From a virus, in the IMG/VR virus record IMGVR_UViG_3300027509_000029: a DNA stretch of 34,013 nt. The stretch is one strand, 5' to 3'. The position numbers were made by a program, and so were the translations under genes. The notes under the pieces were generated by a model, which was given only the letters and a program-made list of their open reading frames with translations, made no database searches and was not told where the DNA came from. How positions within the stretch are numbered: the first letter of the stretch is position 1; each line of letters opens with the position of its first letter. Shown here piece after piece: positions 3,400 to 34,013 of this stretch.

Positions 3400-3534
3400 A
3401 TGATTCTCCTCTGATTGACAATAATACTTATGATGAGATTTGCAGCGCGTACTCGCATTATTACCCGCTCTCAGAACTATCTCCTATGAATAATTATCAC
3501 TAATAGATACTTGACAGATTTTGTAAATATCTGT

Positions 3535-4500: not shown

Positions 4501-5157
4501 ATGAAAATAGCCTATAGAACATTAACCGATGTGCCGTATATTTTTACTCGATTATCACAACCATATTTTAAACCACTGATACCGTTGGTTGAGCATAGAT
4601 TACGACGCAATGGCTATCCTGATATCGAATTTGTTGTATTCAACCGTAAAAACCACGCAAAAATGCAACGAATCTATATAACGGGTTGGGATGCACCACA
4701 ACTAGAATACGACGCAACTAAAACTAAACCATTAAAACGCCTACATAACGGCATGAATCCTTTTCAATTGTGCAGATATTTACAACACACATATATACCG
4801 TTTATTGCACATCCCGAAATGGTTTTAGACTTTCAATCTCATGTTGAAACAGTCAGTGGCCCAAATGAAATTACAAAATATAACAACGTAGTTCTTTACA
4901 AGAAATCTATTGCGGATAGATTCATCTATCCCCCTTTAAATGCCATCACTGAATACTTAAAACACAACATTGGCACTCCACAACAGTTCCAATTGCTAAA
5001 TATGCTCAGGGAAAACGCGCGGGTTGTGGAGTCAACTAGAAATGGACAAGAAATCGAAAGACGAGCTAAAACAGATACTAACGACACCCCCCCAAGCTGG
5101 AGACCAGCTACCCGCAGGGCGAAACATAGGAAAAAGAGAAGGGCTGCTACTCGATAA
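4501..5157 (+). CDS. Hypothetical protein; its 3' end overlaps the next ORF around a C7 tract
   Basis: 218-aa ORF. The last ~20 codons after the C7 run (5087-5093) are an Arg/Lys-rich tail. Confidence 0.5.
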   Translation: MKIAYRTLTDVPYIFTRLSQPYFKPLIPLVEHRLRRNGYPDIEFVVFNRKNHAKMQRIYITGWDAPQLEYDATKTKPLKRLHNGMNPFQLCRYLQHTYIPFIAHPEMVLDFQSHVETVSGPNEITKYNNVVLYKKSIADRFIYPPLNAITEYLKHNIGTPQQFQLLNMLRENARVVESTRNGQEIERRAKTDTNDTPPSWRPATRRAKHRKKRRAATR

Positions 5158-5497
5158 GATCGAGAACGACAATATCCAAATCATTGCGAAACAACTCGGA
5201 TTACAGATGCCGGATCTTGTCATGTTGCAGATGGCAAACGGTGTAGATAAAAATCTTGAGCCAATAAAGGTCAGTAATCGCGAAATTCTGACCGCAGCTA
5301 TAGGCTTGCAAAACTCTATTGACAAACGGTATGTCAACGATCTACAGATTGATAACACACCTCCACCGCCAGCAGTCAATATTAATTTTAAAGGGACTGA
5401 TAACGACGATACCATCATCATTGAGCATGATGATGGTGATGATGATGAACCTATTGATCCTGATGATGACAGTGATTATATTGACGGTGATCAGTGA
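5024..5497 (+). CDS. Putative terminase small subunit (or C-terminal part of a frameshifted fusion with 4501-5157)
   Basis: 157-aa ORF immediately upstream of TerL, with a TGATG overlap. HTH-like segment NIQIIAKQLGLQMPDLV and an acidic C-terminal tail. Position-based call. Confidence 0.5.
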   Translation: MWSQLEMDKKSKDELKQILTTPPQAGDQLPAGRNIGKREGLLLDKIENDNIQIIAKQLGLQMPDLVMLQMANGVDKNLEPIKVSNREILTAAIGLQNSIDKRYVNDLQIDNTPPPPAVNINFKGTDNDDTIIIEHDDGDDDEPIDPDDDSDYIDGDQ

Positions 5498-6747
5498 TGC
5501 CTGATTTAAACGAATTAAATTTACAGTTCCCTGATAAAGCAAAATGCTTATTCGGTGATAGCCGTTACGTATGCCTATATGGAGGCCGGGCCAGCGGGAA
5601 ATCTTGGGCCATAGTCAGATACCTTATTATTAAAGCGATTACTGAAAAGCATAATATTTTATGCGCTCGACAATTCCAAAACTCAATATCAGCCTCTGTA
5701 TATAAGCTCATATGTGATCAAATATCTGCGATGGGTTTAAGTGCATATTTCCATATTACAAATAAAGAAATACTTTGTAAGACAACCGGCTCGGTTTTTA
5801 CTTTCATTGGCATTAAGAGAGATCCTGAAAAAATAAAATCATTAGAAAACGCAACACTATGTTTTGTAGAGGAGGGTGAATCCGTCAGTTCCGAGTCTTG
5901 GCGAGTCTTAATACCGACGCTGAGAGCGGAAGGCAGTCGTATACTCATTGCTTTTAACCCTAATCAGCCAGATGATCCGACGTATAAAAAATTCGTCGTA
6001 AACCCACCAAAAAGCTGTGTAAGTGTGCTCATGACGTATCTCGATAATCCGTGGTGCAGTCAGATTATGATCGACGAAGCGGAAGAGATGCGCATTAGTG
6101 ATCCTGAGATGTACTCACATGTATGGCTAGGTACATGCTTGCAGAAGAGTGACCAACAGGTTTTATGGGATCGTTGTGTAGTTGACGAATTCACTCCAAA
6201 AAACAATTGGAACGCCTCACCTTTGCATGGATTAGACTATGGATTTTCAGGCGATCCGATGGCATTTGTGCGATGTTGGATCTATGATAAAACGCTATGG
6301 ATAGAAGCAGAATCCACAGGTGTACGTATTGAAAACGACGATATAGTAGATCATATACTCAACGATGTACCATCAGCAGCACAATATGAAATTCGCTGCG
6401 ATAATTCCAGGCCTGAGACGACGAGTCACATTAGAAAAAATGGTTTGCCTAATGCTGTAAGCTGCACCAAAGGCGCGGATAGTATTAAAGAGGGGATAGC
6501 TTACTTAAGATCATTTAATCGCATCGTGATACATCCTCGCTGCAAATTCACGATACGCGAAGCACAGCTATATCGACACAAATTAGATCCACTCAGCGGC
6601 CAAGTCCTGCCCGCGATTATCGACAAACACAACAATTCTTGGGATGCCGTGAGGTACGCCATACAGACCACCATGCCCACGAAATCCAACCATAGCACTA
6701 TCACTACTACTAACAGCAATCGACAGCCACCACGGCTGCCTCGCTGA
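5494..6747 (+). CDS. terL: Terminase large subunit
   Basis: 417-aa ORF. N-terminal Walker A (YGGRASGKSWA) and Walker B-like CFVEEGE. Its size and its position ahead of the head genes fit PBSX/Terminase_3-like large terminases. Confidence 0.85.
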   Translation: MMPDLNELNLQFPDKAKCLFGDSRYVCLYGGRASGKSWAIVRYLIIKAITEKHNILCARQFQNSISASVYKLICDQISAMGLSAYFHITNKEILCKTTGSVFTFIGIKRDPEKIKSLENATLCFVEEGESVSSESWRVLIPTLRAEGSRILIAFNPNQPDDPTYKKFVVNPPKSCVSVLMTYLDNPWCSQIMIDEAEEMRISDPEMYSHVWLGTCLQKSDQQVLWDRCVVDEFTPKNNWNASPLHGLDYGFSGDPMAFVRCWIYDKTLWIEAESTGVRIENDDIVDHILNDVPSAAQYEIRCDNSRPETTSHIRKNGLPNAVSCTKGADSIKEGIAYLRSFNRIVIHPRCKFTIREAQLYRHKLDPLSGQVLPAIIDKHNNSWDAVRYAIQTTMPTKSNHSTITTTNSNRQPPRLPR

Positions 6748-28342: not shown

Positions 28343-28412
28343 GATGCACCTCCCGCTGCTGCCAGGTGGACAGCGGCGAGATGTGGCGTAACTGTAATAT
28401 TATTTGGCGGGA

Positions 28413-28813
28413 GTGTAGATAGATTTGTGGTAGCGGATGCAATGGTATAGATAGTGCACAGCGCGCTGTGGGTGGCGTTATTGTGCCTGTGCTGTGGCTG
28501 CTGTGGCTGTTGGTCTGTTGGGAGGTGTAGAGAAAATCGTAGATAGGTCGGGGTGGTGGAAATTGTAGATAGTGCTGAGGACCGCGCTACATATGGCTTT
28601 CGATGAGTTGGTGTAGGTGATTTTGACATGTTATTAAACGTTCTCTAAGTTTAGGAAAGATTCTATTGTGGCAGATTGTGCAGAGGAGTGCAGAAAGGGT
28701 GATGTTATTTGGGTCTGTGATCACATTTTAGGGCTGTGGTCCTTGTCACATATATTTGGGTTGGTAGGGGAGTGTAGAGAGTTTTTGGGATAGGTACGGG
28801 AGAGTGTAGATAG
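28413..28813 (+). promoter_or_regulatory. Field of direct (G)TGTAGA(T/G)AG repeats: candidate integrase arm-type sites / attP region
   Basis: GTGTAGATAG at 28413 and 28804. GTATAGATAG at 28445. GTGTAGAGA at 28525 and 28772. GTAGATAG at 28539. TTGTAGATAG at 28563. All are in one orientation, with a repeat-free gap at 28573-28771. Confidence 0.5.
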
Positions 28814-28972
28814 TTTGAGGGTGTTTTTGGGTGTTTTTGGGTGTGTGGCTGGGGTGTGCTGTGGTGTGCTGTGGTGGTTTTGGCAGCCGCCGCCCAGGCG
28901 CTGCGGGATGCTGCGGGAGGGTGCGCTGAGAGCGCCTGAGCGGCGCTAGCGGGGATGATGGTTAGAGGGTGG

Positions 28973-29185
28973 TTAGATGGTGGTTAGATCGTCAATGTTG
29001 GATTGTAGAGTTTGCTTTCGCTCATGTATCAACTCGTGCAAGATGCCGCGTGTGCGACATGCTGCGGGATATGATGGATCGGTGGTGGGTACGCCTTGCC
29101 ACTGCTTGTTTAATCGCTCCAGCTCTGCGACGAGTCGTTGCAGTGGCACCCTTTCGTAGAGATTGCGTGTAGTGTCGTAGTCCAT
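28973..29185 (-). CDS. Hypothetical small protein
   Basis: The track ORF (to 29242) begins with TTG. The ATG at 29185 has AAGGA 7 nt upstream and gives a 70-aa product (MDYDTTRNLYERV...). Confidence 0.5.
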   Translation of the reverse strand: MDYDTTRNLYERVPLQRLVAELERLNKQWQGVPTTDPSYPAACRTRGILHELIHERKQTLQSNIDDLTTI

Positions 29186-29266
29186 GTGAGTGTCCTTGTG
29201 TGTGGGTGTGGGTGCCATTTCCCCCGCTGCCGTCCAGGCCAAGCGGGGGTGATGGTTTGGTGGTGA

Positions 29267-29752
29267 TTAGAGGGTAGCTAGATCGTTAGTCGCGATGATC
29301 TGTTCGATGATCACTACAGCTATTTTTTTAATCTGAACGAGCATGATCTGATCAGCGAATAATGTTGACTCTAAAAATTTGCTAGTCGCAACGTCACTGG
29401 CGATGTACGGCATCGCTGTTCTATCGTCATCTATCAACATCGGATAGTTGAGTTCGAATTCGCTATGATGATCGAATTCAATTTCGATTTCTTGGTTATT
29501 CGGGTCGATTGATGATGTCACTTTGACCATGAAATCAATTTCGATTTCGTTCTCGCCGAACGGATCTGCGGTGGCAGTCAGTTCGATGTAATGTATCTGA
29601 TCGCCAGGCGGCTCATCTTTTGGATAGCGATGGATTCTGCCATTGTCGGATCGGTCTATAGTGAATTGCGATGCATGCAATTCATCAGACATAAATGATG
29701 ATAAGAGCACACGTGTGTTCGCGATGTTTACACGTATAAAAGTAGTAGACAT
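29267..29752 (-). CDS. Hypothetical acidic protein
   Basis: The track ORF begins at TTG 29788. The first ATG at 29752 gives 161 aa (MSTTFIRVNIANT...). No motif recognised. Confidence 0.6.
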   Translation of the reverse strand: MSTTFIRVNIANTRVLLSSFMSDELHASQFTIDRSDNGRIHRYPKDEPPGDQIHYIELTATADPFGENEIEIDFMVKVTSSIDPNNQEIEIEFDHHSEFELNYPMLIDDDRTAMPYIASDVATSKFLESTLFADQIMLVQIKKIAVVIIEQIIATNDLATL

Positions 29753-29918
29753 ATTGATATTTTTAATTTGCAGTGCCGAATCTGGCAACGGCCAAACTAT
29801 AATCAGGATGCCATTTTGATTATGAGGTATAGTTCAGGTTTTCTGCAAAAAACGGCAAAATAATGCATAATTTCAGGGTACTGAAAATGTTTGATGGTGT
29901 CTGTGATTCAATGCGGGT

Positions 29919-30215
29919 TTATTGTGATTTGTGGTGGTCCTGAGAGTCTGGTGGGGCTGGTGGTGTTGTTTTTGCTTGCTGTGGTAGCGAGGTGAGATGG
30001 TAATGCTCGCAGTGGACGCACAGGTACGGGTTCTGATATGCACGGTTAATGGCTTCTGCAAAGCGTGTGGCCGCTTTAGCACTCACGAACAGTCTCTTAC
30101 CGCTTCGTGGGCAGGTCTGATCTGCTGGCGGTTTTCTGAACTGTTTAGGCAATGATTTAAAAATCCTGTCTTTTTTGCTGTATTTCGAGCGTTTGGGCAT
30201 CGGTATAATCTCCAT
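29919..30215 (-). CDS. Small basic Cys/His (zinc-ribbon-like) protein, possible DNA-binding regulator
   Basis: 98-aa ORF. The second ATG (30200) has GGAGA 10 nt upstream. Basic N-terminus (PKRSKYSKKDRIFKSLPKQFRK), CP...YLCVHCEHYHLTS motif, Pro/Gln-rich tail. It is the first leftward gene next to the regulatory block. Confidence 0.6.
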   Translation of the reverse strand: MEIIPMPKRSKYSKKDRIFKSLPKQFRKPPADQTCPRSGKRLFVSAKAATRFAEAINRAYQNPYLCVHCEHYHLTSLPQQAKTTPPAPPDSQDHHKSQ

Positions 30216-30305
30216 GTATAGAGATTATTTAGGGACTGAGAGGAGGGGAGAGGAGAGGAGGATACCTGGCAGCAGAGCGTGGCAAAAGAGCGTGTTATTT
30301 TGATT

Positions 30306-30412
30306 ATGCTGAGAGCACGCTTGTATTATGGTGGGGGACTATGCTCAGATCATGGTTGTATTATGTTATTGACCATGGTTGTATTATGTTATTTTGATTA
30401 TGCTCAGAGCAT
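30306..30412. promoter_or_regulatory. Left cluster of 13-bp palindromic operator-like sites ATGCTC(W)GAGCAT
   Basis: ATGCTGAGAGCAC at 30306-30318 and ATGCTCAGATCAT at 30341-30353 are imperfect. ATGCTCAGAGCAT at 30400-30412 is perfect. Confidence 0.5.
30369..30395 (+). promoter_or_regulatory. Candidate rightward promoter: TTGACC-N15-(TGT)TATTTT
   Basis: -35-like TTGACC at 30369-30374. Extended -10-like TGTTATTTT ends at 30395. The perfect palindromic operator at 30400 would cover the predicted start. The 15-bp spacer is short. Confidence 0.35.
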
Positions 30413-30415
30413 GCT

Positions 30416-30442
30416 TTGACCATGCTTGTACTATGTTATTTT
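30416..30442 (+). promoter_or_regulatory. Candidate rightward promoter: TTGACC-N15-(TGT)TATTTT
   Basis: TTGACC at 30416-30421 and TGTTATTTT ending at 30442. Same architecture as 30369-30395. Confidence 0.35.
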
Positions 30443-30470
30443 GGGTTGTGCAGCGCTGCGGGGGCTGAAT

Positions 30471-30608
30471 ATGGCCAGGTGTCTCAGCGGCATTGTGCAA
30501 GATTTTTTCTGTGGGGTGGGTCTCGGTTGGGGGGTGTCCCACGTCTCACTATGCAATCTTGTAGTCCTTGTCACACTTTGGCAAAATGTAAACCACTTAT
30601 CAAAATAA
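30471..30608 (+). CDS. Possible 45-aa hydrophobic peptide (very tentative)
   Basis: ATG at 30471 with GGGGG 6 nt upstream, about 20 nt downstream of the candidate promoter at 30416-30442. Product: MARCLSGIVQDFFCGVGLGWGVSHVSLCNLVVLVTLWQNVNHLSK. It contains a copy of the GTCCTTGTCACA box that is non-coding elsewhere, which argues against a real gene. Confidence 0.2.
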   Translation: MARCLSGIVQDFFCGVGLGWGVSHVSLCNLVVLVTLWQNVNHLSK

Positions 30609-30683
30609 AATAGTAAAATAAAATAGTCATAACATGATCTAAATCACATCCCCATCAATTATCTAAAAGTGTGACGTAATCAT

Positions 30684-30710
30684 TTGACATTATTGAGATC
30701 ATGTTATTTT
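30684..30710 (+). promoter_or_regulatory. Candidate rightward promoter: TTGACA-N15-(TGT)TATTTT
   Basis: TTGACA at 30684-30689 and ATGTTATTTT at 30701-30710. Confidence 0.3.
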
Positions 30711-31139
30711 GGATAGGTTTCTGTTCTTGCTCTATGTTTAGAGAGAACGGGATTTTTCTATATAAATCAAGGGTTTAGCAGCGCTGCGAGGGTAGGTATC
30801 TATAAAACTATCTATAGTCTATCTCGAAAAGGTGCAGAATATTTCTGGCGAGTTTGTGAGGTGATCGAAATAATGTGGATGATCTGTAATGGTTAAGATA
30901 ATGTTATTTTTGATTGGTTGATCACAGTGTGTAGACTCTCTCTGATATTTGCGGTCCTTGTCACATAGTTGGGAGATAGTTGGTATGATTCTTGCTAGTA
31001 AAAATAAAATGGTCATAAAATGGTGGGGATGGTCGGATGATTGACTATGTGAGACAGTTCAGAGAATAATCTGAAAAATGCTGTATAATTATAGGCGGTG
31101 GGAGGGCTGGATTAAAAAAAATAACATAGCCAGTAATAG

Positions 31140-31159
31140 TACTGTATGGATTTACAGTA
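31140..31159. promoter_or_regulatory. LexA (SOS) box 1: TACTGTATGGATTTACAGTA
   Basis: 17/20 match to the E. coli-type consensus TACTGTATATATATACAGTA. Both CTGT and ACAG arms and the N8 spacing are intact. Confidence 0.75.
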
Positions 31160-31188
31160 CGACCTGATTTTGCCCATGACAAAATACA

Positions 31189-31204
31189 TGCAAGAATCGT
31201 GCCA
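31189..31204 (-). promoter_or_regulatory. Sigma-54 (RpoN) promoter, proximal copy: TGGCACGATTCTTGCA on the minus strand
   Basis: Exact match to TGGCACG-N4-TTGCW. GG and GC are separated by the canonical spacing. Confidence 0.7.
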
Positions 31205-31234
31205 AGATTGTAAAATTGCCCATGACAAAATACA

Positions 31235-31250
31235 TGCAAGAATCGTGCCA
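31235..31250 (-). promoter_or_regulatory. Sigma-54 (RpoN) promoter, middle copy
   Basis: Identical TGGCACGATTCTTGCA on the minus strand, 46 bp from the proximal copy. Confidence 0.7.
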
Positions 31251-31281
31251 AGATTGTAAAATTGCCCATGACAAAAATACA

Positions 31282-31297
31282 TGCAAGAATCGTGCCA
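31282..31297 (-). promoter_or_regulatory. Sigma-54 (RpoN) promoter, distal copy
   Basis: Identical TGGCACGATTCTTGCA on the minus strand, 47 bp from the middle copy. Confidence 0.7.
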
Positions 31298-31334
31298 ACA
31301 TTATAAAATTGCCCATGTTATTTTTACAAGAGAA

Positions 31335-31354
31335 TACTGTATGGATTTACAGTA
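31335..31354. promoter_or_regulatory. LexA (SOS) box 2: TACTGTATGGATTTACAGTA
   Basis: The same 20-mer as box 1. Confidence 0.75.
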
Positions 31355-31355
31355 G

Positions 31356-31384
31356 TTGATTGCTGTATGGATTTACAGTAGTAT
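31356..31384 (+). promoter_or_regulatory. Candidate LexA-repressed rightward sigma-70 promoter TTGATT-N17-TAGTAT
   Basis: -35-like element at 31356-31361 and -10-like at 31379-31384. LexA box 3 occupies the whole spacer and overlaps both hexamers. Confidence 0.4.
31361..31380. promoter_or_regulatory. LexA (SOS) box 3: TGCTGTATGGATTTACAGTA
   Basis: Same 16-bp core CTGTATGGATTTACAG. Its centre is 26 bp from box 2. Confidence 0.7.
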
Positions 31385-31707
31385 CCGAAATTGCCGATGA
31401 CAATTAGTCGTAGCACAGAACGATATAAGAGTGTTGGAAATAATGTTATTTTTGTGAGATTGTTGGCATTATAGGGGGTTTGTGACAAGGACCGCAGCGC
31501 TGTAAGGTATTATTTTATTTTGAGAAGTGGTCCGCAAATACGCGGGATTTGAATTGACAATATTGAAAAATTTTGTTTCAAGGCGTGAAATAATGTTTCC
31601 TCAGAGGAAAGTATGTCATTTAGGATGCAATTATGTCATTTAGGATGACATTTTAAAATAACACAGTCAAAGATAGTCAAAGATAGTCCCTGCCATTGCG
31701 CTGCTGC

Positions 31708-31753
31708 CATGCTCTGAGCATAGTCCCTGCCATGCTCTGAGCATAGTCCCTGC
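31708..31753. promoter_or_regulatory. Right cluster: 2 x 23-bp tandem repeat, each with the perfect palindrome ATGCTCTGAGCAT
   Basis: The unit CATGCTCTGAGCATAGTCCCTGC occurs at 31708-31730 and 31731-31753. The palindromes are at 31709-31721 and 31732-31744. Confidence 0.5.
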
Positions 31754-31780
31754 CAGGCGCGCTCTTGTGGTGATGGATGG

Positions 31781-31830
31781 CTCAGGATAGCTTAGGATAG
31801 CTTAGGATAGCTTAGGATAGCTTAGGATGG
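31781..31830. repeat. 5 x 10-bp tandem repeat CT(T/C)AGGAT(A/G)G (iteron-like)
   Basis: CTCAGGATAG, CTTAGGATAG x3, CTTAGGATGG. The 10-bp period places all copies on one helix face. Confidence 0.9.
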
Positions 31831-31940
31831 CTTTTGTTGAAATTTTCGGTGGTGGTGGGTTCAATCCACTGCACATGCACAACAGCTAAATCATCTTAAT
31901 AATGAGGAAATAGACCGTTTTCTGGCATATAACCCTACAG

Positions 31941-32040
31941 TACAAATATATATATATTAAAAAAATAAAATATCTCTACATATATACTATTAAATAACGT
32001 CTATTTTATCTATTTTATCTATTTTTTTTATATATTATAT
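31941..32040. other. AT-rich tract with (TA)n and 3 x CTATTTTAT: candidate DNA-unwinding element of an origin
   Basis: Almost pure A/T over about 100 bp. CTATTTTAT occurs at 32001, 32010 and 32019. The tract lies between the iteron-like repeats and the helicase gene terminator. Confidence 0.4.
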
Positions 32041-32082
32041 AGACGAAATAGAGCTATCTCAAATCAACATCTCAGATAACGA

Positions 32083-32103
32083 CAAAAAGCCCAAAAAAGG
32101 GCT
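32083..32103 (-). terminator. Rho-independent terminator after the helicase gene
   Basis: Minus strand reads AGCCC-TTTTTT-GGGCT followed by TTTTT, 34 nt after the stop codon. Confidence 0.65.
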
Positions 32104-32136
32104 CTTGTCTTACCATCAAATTTAACACAATATCCA

Positions 32137-33837
32137 TCAAAATTGCAGGATATTATCCTCATCTGCACCATTACCGCCGTCCAGGCGGCGACTACCACCA
32201 TCCTCATCAATATCATTGTAGATCTCACCAATGTGGCCCTTACGAAACTTCCATCCTCGTATACGATTAAGATTGCCACTGTACGCATTGGACACATCTA
32301 TACCACGCTGCACCAATTGCTTTTTTAATTCCTTGTCACCACTTGAATACAACCGTCGCTCTACACACCACTCAGTATATTGACTCAAAAAGTCGGTTAA
32401 CTTGATTGTAGCTCTACCATCCTCAACGATTGCAGAGTCAATGAACGTTCCTAACTTATCCTCACCACTTCGCCACATTGCAGTATCTACCTTCACAACT
32501 TTAGGAATATCAAACTGTTGACCATTAGCCATGTATGCAATCGCACCTGCAATGCACCAATTTAGAATCCCTGATTGCTCAAACGTTAATTTCTTACTGA
32601 TCAACTCACGATCTTTCTCAGCATCACTGAAAACTCGATTGAAATTCAGCAATACCAAACGCCGCCATATACCACCATCAGTACAAGCAACCGACGGCAC
32701 GTAATTAGTATTAAGAATCATCGTTGCCACGCACGTCAATTCAAACGGCTCACCACGAATTGGCCTGGCAGCCATCCCCTCATCCGAATCAACCATCCGC
32801 TTCACGATTGTATCGTCCAACGCATTGCTAGACTTTCGACCATCAGAACTACCCAACTCGTTCATGATGATCATGCGAACACCTTTCAACATTGCTAGAG
32901 CATATTGCTTTTCTGATGTAGAGGCACCTGTGATCACCTCAGGACTTACCGACGCTTTATAACCACCATCGCCAGCTTTACCTAAAATCGGCTCTAAAAC
33001 TTTCGCAAATGTCGATTTACCATTGCTACCATCACCACAAAAAAAGAACATTTTCTCTTTTGAATTACCGACCAGGCAACTGCCTGCAATCTGTTGCAAC
33101 AGATCAACTTTCGTCTCATCACCTTCCATGATCTCAAGCAATGTCTGTTGCCATATTGGACACTCAGCACCATCCTCATACTCCACCTCAGATGATTTTA
33201 ACAACATGTATTCCGGCTTATCTTTAATAAATTTGCCATCTCGCAAATCAATCACACCATTTGCCACACCAAAAAATTGTCCCTTACGATCAAACTCATT
33301 GTAATGAATCGGTATACCACTCAATGTCGCCGCCACATCAATAGAGCGCTCCTTAGTCCCTTTATTAGATGATGCTGTAATCCATGCTCTGACACGCTTG
33401 AGCATCTTTTGTAGCATCGCCTTAGCAACCCTAGTACGCTCTGCTAACGGCGAGTCATCGCCCTTAGCGACAGCAGGGAGTGATACGTTCATACCTTCCA
33501 ATTCGTACCGATATTTTTTAATCGAATCAATAACCGATTTATATTTTCTCTCTATCTCAGAGTCTGTATTGAGGTTCCATTTCTGATTAGCCCAATATGC
33601 CCATTGTTTTAACTCAATGACGTATCGCACCTCATCATCAAACGATTTTACAAAAACCTCAGCATTGCCCGTTTCAGTCAATATCTCATCAAACTCAATA
33701 TCAAGCTCATTAAGCTTTTCCAATATCTCAATAACACCCGACCCCACTAACGCCTCTTCATTAGCTTTCTCTTGCCGACGCTCTTCTATTAAATCCTGCA
33801 ACTCCTCAGTCGTCATTTCCTCTCTGTTTTTAGTCAT
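32137..33837 (-). CDS. SF3 replicative helicase (P4-alpha / poxvirus D5 family C-terminal domain)
   Basis: 566-aa ORF with GGGAGG upstream. D5_N-like TGNAEVFVKSF...WAYWANQKW. Walker A: FFCGDGSNGKSTF. Walker B-like: VRMIIMNELG. The downstream NTNYVP...GGIWRRL pattern is typical of the P4 primase C-terminal domain. Confidence 0.8.
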   Translation of the reverse strand: MTKNREEMTTEELQDLIEERRQEKANEEALVGSGVIEILEKLNELDIEFDEILTETGNAEVFVKSFDDEVRYVIELKQWAYWANQKWNLNTDSEIERKYKSVIDSIKKYRYELEGMNVSLPAVAKGDDSPLAERTRVAKAMLQKMLKRVRAWITASSNKGTKERSIDVAATLSGIPIHYNEFDRKGQFFGVANGVIDLRDGKFIKDKPEYMLLKSSEVEYEDGAECPIWQQTLLEIMEGDETKVDLLQQIAGSCLVGNSKEKMFFFCGDGSNGKSTFAKVLEPILGKAGDGGYKASVSPEVITGASTSEKQYALAMLKGVRMIIMNELGSSDGRKSSNALDDTIVKRMVDSDEGMAARPIRGEPFELTCVATMILNTNYVPSVACTDGGIWRRLVLLNFNRVFSDAEKDRELISKKLTFEQSGILNWCIAGAIAYMANGQQFDIPKVVKVDTAMWRSGEDKLGTFIDSAIVEDGRATIKLTDFLSQYTEWCVERRLYSSGDKELKKQLVQRGIDVSNAYSGNLNRIRGWKFRKGHIGEIYNDIDEDGGSRRLDGGNGADEDNILQF

Positions 33838-33869: not shown

Positions 33870-33963
33870 ACTACTACCTACTACCAACTACCTACTACCA
33901 ACTACCTACTACCTACTACCAACTACCAACTACCTACTACCTACTACCTACTACCTACTACCA
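33870..33963. repeat. Tandem heptamer array, 13 x ACTACC(T/A), read as (A/T)GGTAGT on the coding strand
   Basis: Units start at 33873, 33880 and so on to 33957. The seventh-base pattern is T A T A T T A A T T T T A. Units 3-13 recur at 1-77 because of the terminal overlap. The array fills the gap between the AEP primase stop (83 = 33969) and the helicase start (33837). Confidence 0.95.
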
Positions 33964-34013
33964 AACCATCACGCCGATTTTTTCCGCTTAGCTATCAATT
34001 GCTCTATCGCATC
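33887..34013. repeat. Terminal overlap, copy 2 (identical to 1-127)
   Basis: See copy 1. Confidence 0.95.

Follow-up and report, generated by a model that had tools for sequence, protein, structure and literature searches.

The subject of this analysis is a 46-bp tandem repeat in a phage genome recovered from a metagenome, IMG/VR record IMGVR_UViG_3300027509_000029. The whole stretch of DNA that was analysed, 34,013 nucleotides long, is called the window. Each of the complete repeat units carries a site of the kind recognized by the alternative sigma factor sigma-54 (RpoN), and the repeat is bracketed by LexA operators (SOS boxes). We lean, with slightly better than even confidence, towards regarding the 46-bp units as high-affinity docking sites for the host sigma-54 polymerase and as one member of a class of such arrays that recurs in phages. 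Judged on its sequence, the repeat looks like a real sigma-54-type binding array, and the class to which it belongs is apparently undescribed. Sigma-54 polymerase binds DNA tightly and stays silent until an ATPase activator fires it; sigma-54 is seen as host equipment for stress and nutrient responses that need tight switching, rather than as something that belongs to phage genomes.

The repeat was delimited at 31170-31317 using Tandem Repeats Finder (46-bp period, 3.2 copies, 97% matches). Its units of 46 or 47 bp are read on the minus strand as TTTTACAATCTTGGCACGATTCTTGCATGTATTTTGTCATGGGCAA. The pattern TGGCACG-N4-TTGCW has three exact matches in the window, all on the minus strand of the repeat (31189, 31235 and 31282), and none elsewhere. 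An earlier reading of the sequence, referred to here as the original prediction, had placed TGGCACGATTCTTGCA at 31189-31204, 31235-31250 and 31282-31297 within a 46/47-bp tandem repeat; the three copies are found exactly there, and all 12 specified positions of the -24/-12 consensus are matched with the correct GG-N10-GC spacing. Extended to the 17-mer TTGGCACGATTCTTGCA, which is identical in the three units, they form site A (31189-31205), site B (31235-31251) and site C (31282-31298), with predicted transcription starts at 31178 (the C of CATGGG), 31224 and 31271, respectively. Three further features to which the original prediction pointed are also in place: an A8/T8 tract (31114-31121), CATGGGCAA where transcription is predicted to start, and a frame of 21 codons. 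Unit 1 has the same sequence as unit 2; unit 3 departs from them at three positions, all of them outside the 16-mer. An independent assembly of the same phage (L002, from ENA) holds two units only (2.2 copies). Because units 1 and 2 are identical and this second assembly has two units, the triplication is counted as one duplication event: the three exact copies stand, but they do not add up to three independent pieces of evidence, as had been supposed.

Sites were scored with a position weight matrix derived from 135 E. coli sigma-54 sites mapped by chromatin immunoprecipitation sequencing (ChIP-seq) (PMC4591121). On this E. coli matrix, TTGGCACGATTCTTGCA reaches 21.0 bits and exceeds all 135 mapped sites, whose median is 14.5 bits and whose maximum is 20.4 bits. 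The original prediction gave a probability of about 1e-5 for a chance match, which holds for a single 46-bp unit but not for the window, in which about 5e-3 exact consensus matches are expected under a mononucleotide model and, from the exact score distribution, about 4e-4 sites of at least 21.0 bits; for the open reading frame (ORF)-free region around the array the latter expectation is 2e-5. By its letters, the motif of the 46-bp unit is a sigma-54-type site of the highest quality.

A diverged, inverted copy of the motif, site D (TTGGTATGATTCTTGCT), was found on the plus strand at 30980-30996, pointing rightward toward the array from a distance of about 190 bp. It scores 17.6 bits, and about 6e-4 sites as good are expected within 300 bp. 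Just three changes separate site D from the array motif (C5 to T, C7 to T and A17 to T), and every one of them brings in the base ranked second at its position in the E. coli matrix; since only 5% of all three-substitution variants score as well (p about 0.05), this is weak evidence. Eight of the nine matrix matches of at least 11.7 bits in the window lie in a 3.3-kb ORF-poor region (28442-31756). Two weak sigma-54-like matches on the minus strand at 31717-31756 (12.3 and 13.6 bits) span the junctions of a 23-bp repeat carrying the palindrome ATGCTCTGAGCAT and are probably operator sites rather than sigma-54 sites.

To place the array in a wider context, IMG/VR contigs were scanned for two copies of TGGCACG-N4-TTGCW separated by a gap of 20-45 nt. 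Paired perfect sites were obtained at 120 loci at least, and three perfect sites in a row at 44. The same scan returned two loci with a composition-matched permuted motif, one with an N5 spacer and none with an N3 spacer. The excess at the level of the class is spacing-specific and at least 60-fold over the controls. Two sets of loci were used for the counts that follow, the first 120 loci (1.05 Mb) and all 146 loci (1.24 Mb). The class was defined by at least two sites of at least 15 bits, 20-60 bp apart, in ORF-poor phage DNA with unconserved flanks, and the window, with three (or two) sites 46-47 bp apart, belongs to it. In the first 120 loci, 740 sites of at least 15 bits were counted against fewer than 10 expected by our own estimate. 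Class sites are depleted in long open frames (38% of the sites vs 76% of the sequence) and occur at GC contents of 35 to 64%; their flanks carry no information, and their spacer prefers RTTC.

The substitutions tolerated by the class were examined in 222 imperfect sites, chosen for the GG and GC dinucleotides plus at least six of the eight other positions. Changes are concentrated at position 7 (C to T, 107 sites) and position 8 (G to A, 82 sites), T14 being changed in only four; this pattern mirrors the E. coli sigma-54 ChIP profile, in a test that is not fully independent because the selection was itself informed by sigma-54. By tblastx, the 146 loci separate into 41 unlinked groups, and three or more distinct sites are present in some locus of 32 of them. 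Sites on the same strand are most often 45-49 bp apart, a spacing shared by the window, and the window 19-mer TTGGCACGATTCTTGCATG recurs exactly in at least nine other loci whose flanks are unlike those of the window. No protein family common to all class loci was found. Recurrence in unlinked groups with a strict spacing makes a host factor of conserved specificity, sigma-54, the most economical explanation, and it is likely, by somewhat more than an even chance, that sigma-54 holoenzyme binds the 46-bp units. Several other accounts of the class were tried and rejected. T7-like RNA polymerase promoters are contradicted by the absence of any such polymerase motif in the 146 loci, by the variable N4 spacers and by the use of both strands. 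RNA hairpins do not account for the face-to-face pairs of sites, the N4 spacers of the two arms being only 30% identical. Peaks that might have indicated a fixed sigma-70/sigma-54 composite geometry turned out to be neighbouring sigma-54 sites.

The array is also associated with LexA operators, which were scored with a matrix of 18 E. coli SOS boxes (training boxes, 12.9-25.8 bits). As originally predicted, the array is bracketed by SOS boxes: box 1 (TACTGTATGGATTTACAGTA, 31140-31159), box 2 (31335-31354, the same 20-mer as box 1) and box 3 (TGCTGTATGGATTTACAGTA, 31361-31380) score 21.4-22.5 bits on this matrix, again an E. coli one. All are CTGT-N8-ACAG palindromes close to TACTGTATATATATACAGTA, and they share three identical CTGTATGGATTTACAG cores (31142, 31337 and 31363). 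In the 146 loci plus the window, all 13 strong LexA boxes (at least 18.1 bits) lie 47-197 bp from a sigma-54 site; they belong to the window, to the family of L066, L089 and L105, and to L074. LexA boxes bracket or adjoin a sigma-54-type cluster at 1840-2310 of L066 (also in L089 and L105) and at 4070-4460 of L074. In the L066 family the cluster between the boxes is made up of sigma-54 pairs, and the -35 element of a TTTACA-17-TATACT promoter is overlapped by one of the boxes. A sigma-54 cluster beside LexA operators thus recurs in at least two other phage families. The box type of the window presumably indicates a gamma- or betaproteobacterial host. Such bacteria almost always have rpoN.

At E. 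coli sulA, the -10 element of a sigma-70 promoter lies inside the LexA box. Two promoters of this sulA-like, LexA-overlapped type are predicted on the minus strand of the window. The first, P_SOS-L (31154-31182), consists of TTGTCA (31182-31177), 17 nt and TACTGT (31159-31154), with its -10 in box 1; its paralogue P_SOS-R (31375-31403) consists of TTGTCA (31403-31398), 17 nt and TACTGT (31380-31375), with its -10 in box 3, and box 2 would lie at about +14 to +33 of it. The minus strand reads TTGTCA-17 nt-TACTGTAAATCCATACAGTA from 31182 to 31140 and TTGTCA-17 nt-TACTGTAAATCCATACAGCA from 31403 to 31361, the -10 hexamer forming the left half of the LexA box in both. Neither is listed by a simple promoter scan, TACTGT matching TATAAT at three of six positions. 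Box 1 agrees with the sulA box at 19 of 20 positions; the latter, TACTGTACATCCATACAGTA (PMC3009722), is one position apart from the window boxes. A third sigma-70-like promoter, TTGTAA-18-TATAAT (31300-31329, minus strand, 10/12 matches), owes its TATAAT to a G-to-A change in unit 3, and its start would fall inside the -24 element of site C.

These promoters are interwoven with the repeat. Every unit opens with TTGTCATGGGCAA, the source of the -35 of P_SOS-L and, as TTGTCATCGGCAA, of that of P_SOS-R, and the predicted sigma-54 start of unit 1 (31178) falls within the -35 hexamer of P_SOS-L. A degenerate fifth unit upstream of P_SOS-R, by LexA box 3 (31391-31440, minus strand), has kept the TTGCCGATGACAA part, and the GG of its -24 element is replaced (CTTATATCGTTCTGTGC). 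With predicted sigma-70 promoters whose -10 elements lie in LexA boxes, SOS control of leftward transcription therefore needs no sigma-54: P_SOS-L, P_SOS-R and the TTGTAA-18-TATAAT promoter, all overlooked in the original prediction, explain the SOS boxes without it. Site D, the array and the three LexA boxes are enclosed in a module (30950-31496) bounded by a perfect 16-bp inverted repeat, TGCGGTCCTTGTCACA (30950-30965 and 31481-31496). The sequence GGTCCTTGTCACA occurs four times (28738, 30563 and 30953 on the plus strand, 31481 on the minus strand); one pair of copies forms the perfect 16-bp inverted repeat around the LexA/sigma-54 module of 515 bp, and the sequence may be a target of a recombinase or of a regulator.

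From this arrangement we propose a scheme in which the occupancy by sigma-54, the activity of the sigma-70 promoters and all the consequences are predicted. The array would sit within an SOS-controlled leftward promoter region, directly upstream of P_SOS-L and co-directional with it, and downstream of P_SOS-R and of the constitutive-looking TTGTAA-18-TATAAT promoter. On each unit, sigma-54 holoenzyme would form a stable closed complex unable to fire alone, which would cover the start region of the TATAAT promoter and obstruct transcription coming from P_SOS-R. These complexes could be converted into leftward transcripts, which would still have to pass LexA box 1, by an enhancer-binding ATPase of the host that works either in solution or at a site not recognized here. 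LexA cleavage would independently open both sigma-70 promoters. In this scheme DNA damage would gate leftward transcription to the genes orf98, orf173, xis and int, and the occupancy or activation of sigma-54 would modulate it. Given that sigma-54 binds, we regard productive enhancer-dependent promoters and non-productive occupancy (roadblock, occlusion or titration) as about evenly matched.

A number of observations weigh against this interpretation. The nearest credible gene downstream of the array is orf98, about 960 nt off. No GAFTGA motif and no Sigma54_activat domain was found in the phage proteins, which agrees with the original prediction that the phage has no enhancer-binding protein gene, and no activator-type site was recognized upstream of the array. 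The number of units differs in assembly L002, and copy number is either variable or not resolved by assembly. The GG dinucleotide is lost in the diverged paralogous unit beside LexA box 3. Site D can also be read as an extended -10 sigma-70 element (TGGTATGAT), and it has kept the low-information GATTC spacer, which is the commonest variant in the class; this conservation hints at constraints beyond those known for sigma-54. In the class, 102 face-to-face pairs have their -12 ends 1-5 bp apart, and a second spacing peak lies at 25-29 bp, which seems too close for simultaneous binding of neighbouring holoenzymes. Only 59% of the intergenic class sites point to the next gene, and the orientation split of intergenic sigma-54 sites in E. 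coli is 42 to 8 (PMC4591121). The largest lineage (79 loci) has its arrays 200-800 bp upstream of a terS-like gene and mostly antisense to it. Finally, the regions downstream of the genes for helicase relatives of the window phage are not alignable with the window and are without sigma-54 or LexA sites.

Part of this evidence bears on what bound polymerase would do. The units could be productive tandem sigma-54 promoters, the core of a lysis-lysogeny or excision switch fired by a host enhancer-binding protein through LexA box 1 to orf98, orf173, xis and int. Such a switch would make sense of the perfect consensus with its top-range matrix score, of the co-orientation of the three sites with the downstream minus-strand genes and of the location of LexA box 1 at +19 to +38 of the proximal predicted start. 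In the class, 159 of 182 clusters are followed by a co-oriented ORF of at least 60 amino acids starting within 800 bp, and overlap of sigma-54 and sigma-70 promoters has a precedent at glmY/glmZ (PMC3045617). We nevertheless consider it unlikely, given the missing activator gene or site, the lack of a gene within about 960 nt, and a class-wide orientation bias that is weak and accompanied by many convergent, overlapping pairs. SOS control is already explained by the two LexA-overlapped sigma-70 promoters, and the divergent intergenic region at 3400-3510 is a likelier place for the main switch. In the first 120 loci, no enhancer-binding protein motif was found. A single conserved gene downstream of the arrays was also considered and rejected: 89 of the 159 downstream ORFs are singletons, and PHROGs gave no function. 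The geometry of the class fits binding arrays better than conventional promoters.

The settings in which class arrays occur are diverse. Multi-kilobase ORF-poor regions with 30-55 sigma-54-like sites on both strands, partly in 27-29-bp arrays, are present in L025 (200-6450), L027 (6500-9400) and L023 (1400-4450). In the 79-locus lineage, the arrays lie between an endolysin-like gene and terS-terL. The terS-like gene, seen in 32 loci of this group (e.g. L021, L066 and L123), encodes a 130-amino-acid AT-hook protein, precedes the large terminase gene and probably specifies the small terminase. In 23 phi29-like genomes of about 11-12 kb, which encode protein-primed DNA polymerase B, the Gp16 ATPase, a connector and a Phi29-type capsid protein, the arrays lie in the terminal inverted repeats beside parS-like sites. 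In one of them, L091 (1-420 and 11620-11897), each terminal inverted repeat carries 5-6 tandem TTTGGCACGGTTTTTGCTATGG units with parS-like TGTTTCACGTGGAACA sites after them; its siblings mostly have 2-3 units per end.

More doubtful still is the proposal that the motif is the site of a phage DNA-binding protein (a repressor, a replication or partition protein, or a small terminase), that it resembles sigma-54 sites incidentally or by mimicry, and that the arrays are operator-, iteron- or pac-like. RNA polymerase fits less well than a fairly small protein on sites spaced 25-29 bp apart or set in abutting inverted pairs. Packaging sites or genome ends usually lie upstream of terS-terL, which is where the arrays of the 79-locus lineage are found, and the arrays of the phi29-like genomes lie in terminal inverted repeats. 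The GATTC spacer kept in site D and the abundance of other protein-site-like repeats in this region of the window point the same way. Against these points, the motif keeps its strict N4 spacing in at least 32 groups between which no shared protein was detected, the loci as a whole have no protein family in common, and the tolerated substitutions mirror the E. coli ChIP profile. The array of the window is without a nearby terS, terS and terL lying at 5024-6747, and the probability that an unrelated motif would match the 12 specified positions by chance is about 1e-7 per motif.

That the sigma-54 match is a chance by-product, the repeat being a slippage duplication of the -35 and upstream region of P_SOS-L with only LexA boxes and sigma-70 promoters functional, is very improbable: the units do open with TTGTCATGGGCAA, the -35 source of P_SOS-L and, as TTGTCATCGGCAA, of P_SOS-R, units 1 and 2 are identical, copy number differs between assemblies, the diverged fifth unit is without a sigma-54 site, and an event expected at 4e-4 to 5e-3 can surface by selection when many windows are scanned, as they were initially, but a second high-scoring site lies close by, the ORF-poor region is enriched in weaker sites, many unrelated phage contigs have the identical 19-mer and the 45-49-bp tandem spacing, the spacing controls are clean, and LexA boxes are associated with such clusters in two other families.

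The proposed docking of host sigma-54 polymerase on the array has also to be seen against the organization of the phage genome. The window is a complete circular metagenomic phage contig: positions 1-127 are identical to 33887-34013, and removal of this 127-bp overlap leaves a genome of 33,886 bp, of which independent assemblies exist as ENA and Logan contigs. On the minus strand, the order is an early block (3399 to 83), a D5_N/SF3 helicase gene (32137-33837), an ORF-free, repeat-rich region (30216-32136), orf98 (29919-30215), orf173, a small ORF, a xis-like ORF and a tyrosine integrase gene (28342-27188). No credible ORF was found within 30216-32136, and the stretch from the array to orf98 holds repeat-derived frames only; the ORF-poor stretch of about 960 nt leftward of the array had been correctly described. 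The product of orf98, the gene between the ORF-free region and orf173, is small and basic and shows a CxxxxxC...CxxC pattern; it has no Pfam or PHROG match. A GGAG ribosome-binding site precedes the second ATG of orf98, which was not called as a gene in the ENA assembly. None of the phage genes was identified as encoding an antirepressor homologue. Rfam and tRNA scans gave no matches, and no small RNA is evident. RNA folding of the array region gave a z-score of -2.2, driven by the LexA palindromes, and -0.5 on the other strand.

Other repeats are numerous in and around the ORF-free region. Between 31775 and 31833, GGATAGCTTA occurs six times with a 10-bp spacing (five times in assembly L002). 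It is followed by an AT-rich stretch (31930-32040) and by a hairpin-plus-T-run terminator (32088-32103) located after the helicase stop codon; together these are likely to form a replication origin and an operon terminator. The 46-bp array was itself considered as a set of replication-origin iterons and rejected, as it does not fit and the sixfold GGATAGCTTA array, 450 bp rightward, is the better origin candidate. The 13-bp palindrome ATGCTC(A/T)GAGCAT has five copies, some of them imperfect, in two clusters about 1.3 kb apart (30305-30411 and 31709-31744). The layout resembles paired operator clusters for a dimeric repressor, and no gene for such a repressor was recognized. The motif ATGTTATTTT has 31 matches with at most one mismatch (6.5 expected), of which 16 are in the ORF-poor region, mostly on the plus strand, and was listed for 28700-31970. 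Beside xis and int, a G-rich, strongly GC-skewed stretch (28400-29260) contains about seven copies of TGTAGA(T/G)AG and several short tandem repeats, which may be arm-type sites of the integrase. Most of the 131 nt that separate orf386 from the helicase gene are taken up by about 13 tandem heptamers ACTACCT/ACTACCA (33871-33962, also 1-76).

Relatives of the array and of the phage were searched for at several levels. Queries with the 3.8-kb and 1.9-kb regions, in near and distant modes, detected no DNA relatives among GenBank phages, and the array itself gave only noise there at E values up to 10. Viral and JGI metagenome contigs, among which the window's own contig is evidently absent, gave no match to the unit or to the LexA-promoter module, whether the pattern was exact or degenerate. 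Relatives of the helicase do not exceed 61% identity, the nearest being at 59-61%. For the integrase, no relative at E values of 1e-40 or below was found among 5.8 billion proteins. A scan of genome contigs gave one relative with 31% identity in a Verrucomicrobiaceae metagenome-assembled genome. For TerL, the best matches reach about 40% identity and come from hosts unrelated to one another; the portal protein is without a match.

That three unrelated phage families have such arrays beside LexA operators suggests a link to prophage induction. A broader statement, which we offer tentatively and at rather less than an even chance, is that many unrelated phages use near-consensus sigma-54 arrays to capture the host enhancer-dependent polymerase or free sigma-54, and that these arrays are wired to LexA operators here and in at least two other families. 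On this view the arrays could be host-signal-gated promoters, or else silent roadblocks, occluders or titrating sponges, and the coupling of DNA-damage sensing to sigma-54 occupancy would add a new layer to the transcriptional interplay of phage and host. Should the arrays of the window and of at least 120 other viral contigs bind sigma-54, phages would have in them a common, overlooked means of sensing host signalling pathways or, alternatively, of parking, blocking or sequestering a fraction of the host polymerase, and caution would be needed before such sites are annotated as ordinary promoters. The specificity of sigma-54 is conserved, which makes the idea directly testable in E. coli. It also makes a comparative prediction, namely that no such arrays should exist in phages of hosts without rpoN; actinobacteria and cyanobacteria are not known to have this gene.

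No description of sigma-54 site arrays in phages was found in the literature searched, nor was a phage switch built of RpoN promoters bracketed by SOS boxes, in line with the original prediction. The closest match at the level of the site is with the enhancer-dependent -24/-12 promoters of E. coli (pspG, pspA, glnAp2 and hypA), which share with the window the bipartite TGGCAC-N5-TTGCW with invariant GG and GC 10 nt apart; the pspG site (TTGGCATGATTCTTGTA) is two positions apart from the window 17-mer. Unlike these promoters, the sites of the window are in a phage, repeated in tandem at 46 bp and interleaved with LexA operators and sigma-70 elements, and their array has no activator gene, no recognizable activator site and no nearby downstream gene. 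In E. coli, sigma-54 holoenzyme occupies many motif sites regardless of transcription, with a Spearman correlation between motif score and occupancy of 0.67 for intergenic, gene-directed sites and 0.38 for the rest (PMC4591121); hence the term 'binding site' instead of 'promoter'. Those non-promoter E. coli sites are single, scattered, mostly of moderate score and inside genes (PMC4591121), whereas the phage sites are near-consensus, clustered and depleted in long ORFs.

With sulA-type promoters, the window shares boxes that are 1 nt off the sulA box and that overlap the -10 of TTGTCA-17-TACTGT, here facing small ORFs and xis-int. Direct LexA control of prophage induction and excision modules is established, and LexA-controlled modules include coliphage 186 tum, the Gifsy antirepressors, CTXphi rstA and integron intI. 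Unlike in sulA-type promoters and these modules, three boxes bracket a sigma-54 array in the window, and about 930 nt of non-coding DNA precede the first gene. At glmY, transcription from the sigma-54 promoter and from the sigma-70 promoter begins at one shared nucleotide, and there are defined sites for the activator GlrR; in the window, by contrast, the predicted starts differ, and no activator site or small RNA is evident. Overlapping sigma-54 and sigma-70 promoters are a feature of both the glmY and glmZ small RNA genes (PMC3045617), and the window resembles them in that both promoter types occupy one short stretch of DNA, on which the two holoenzymes would compete or alternate. In Salmonella, Gifsy-1 genes are needed for the RtcR/sigma-54 expression of rtcBA during SOS (PMC9879122). 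DNA damage, a prophage and sigma-54 transcription are connected there as they may be here, with the difference that the sigma-54 promoter is the host's in Salmonella and the sites are in the phage in the window.

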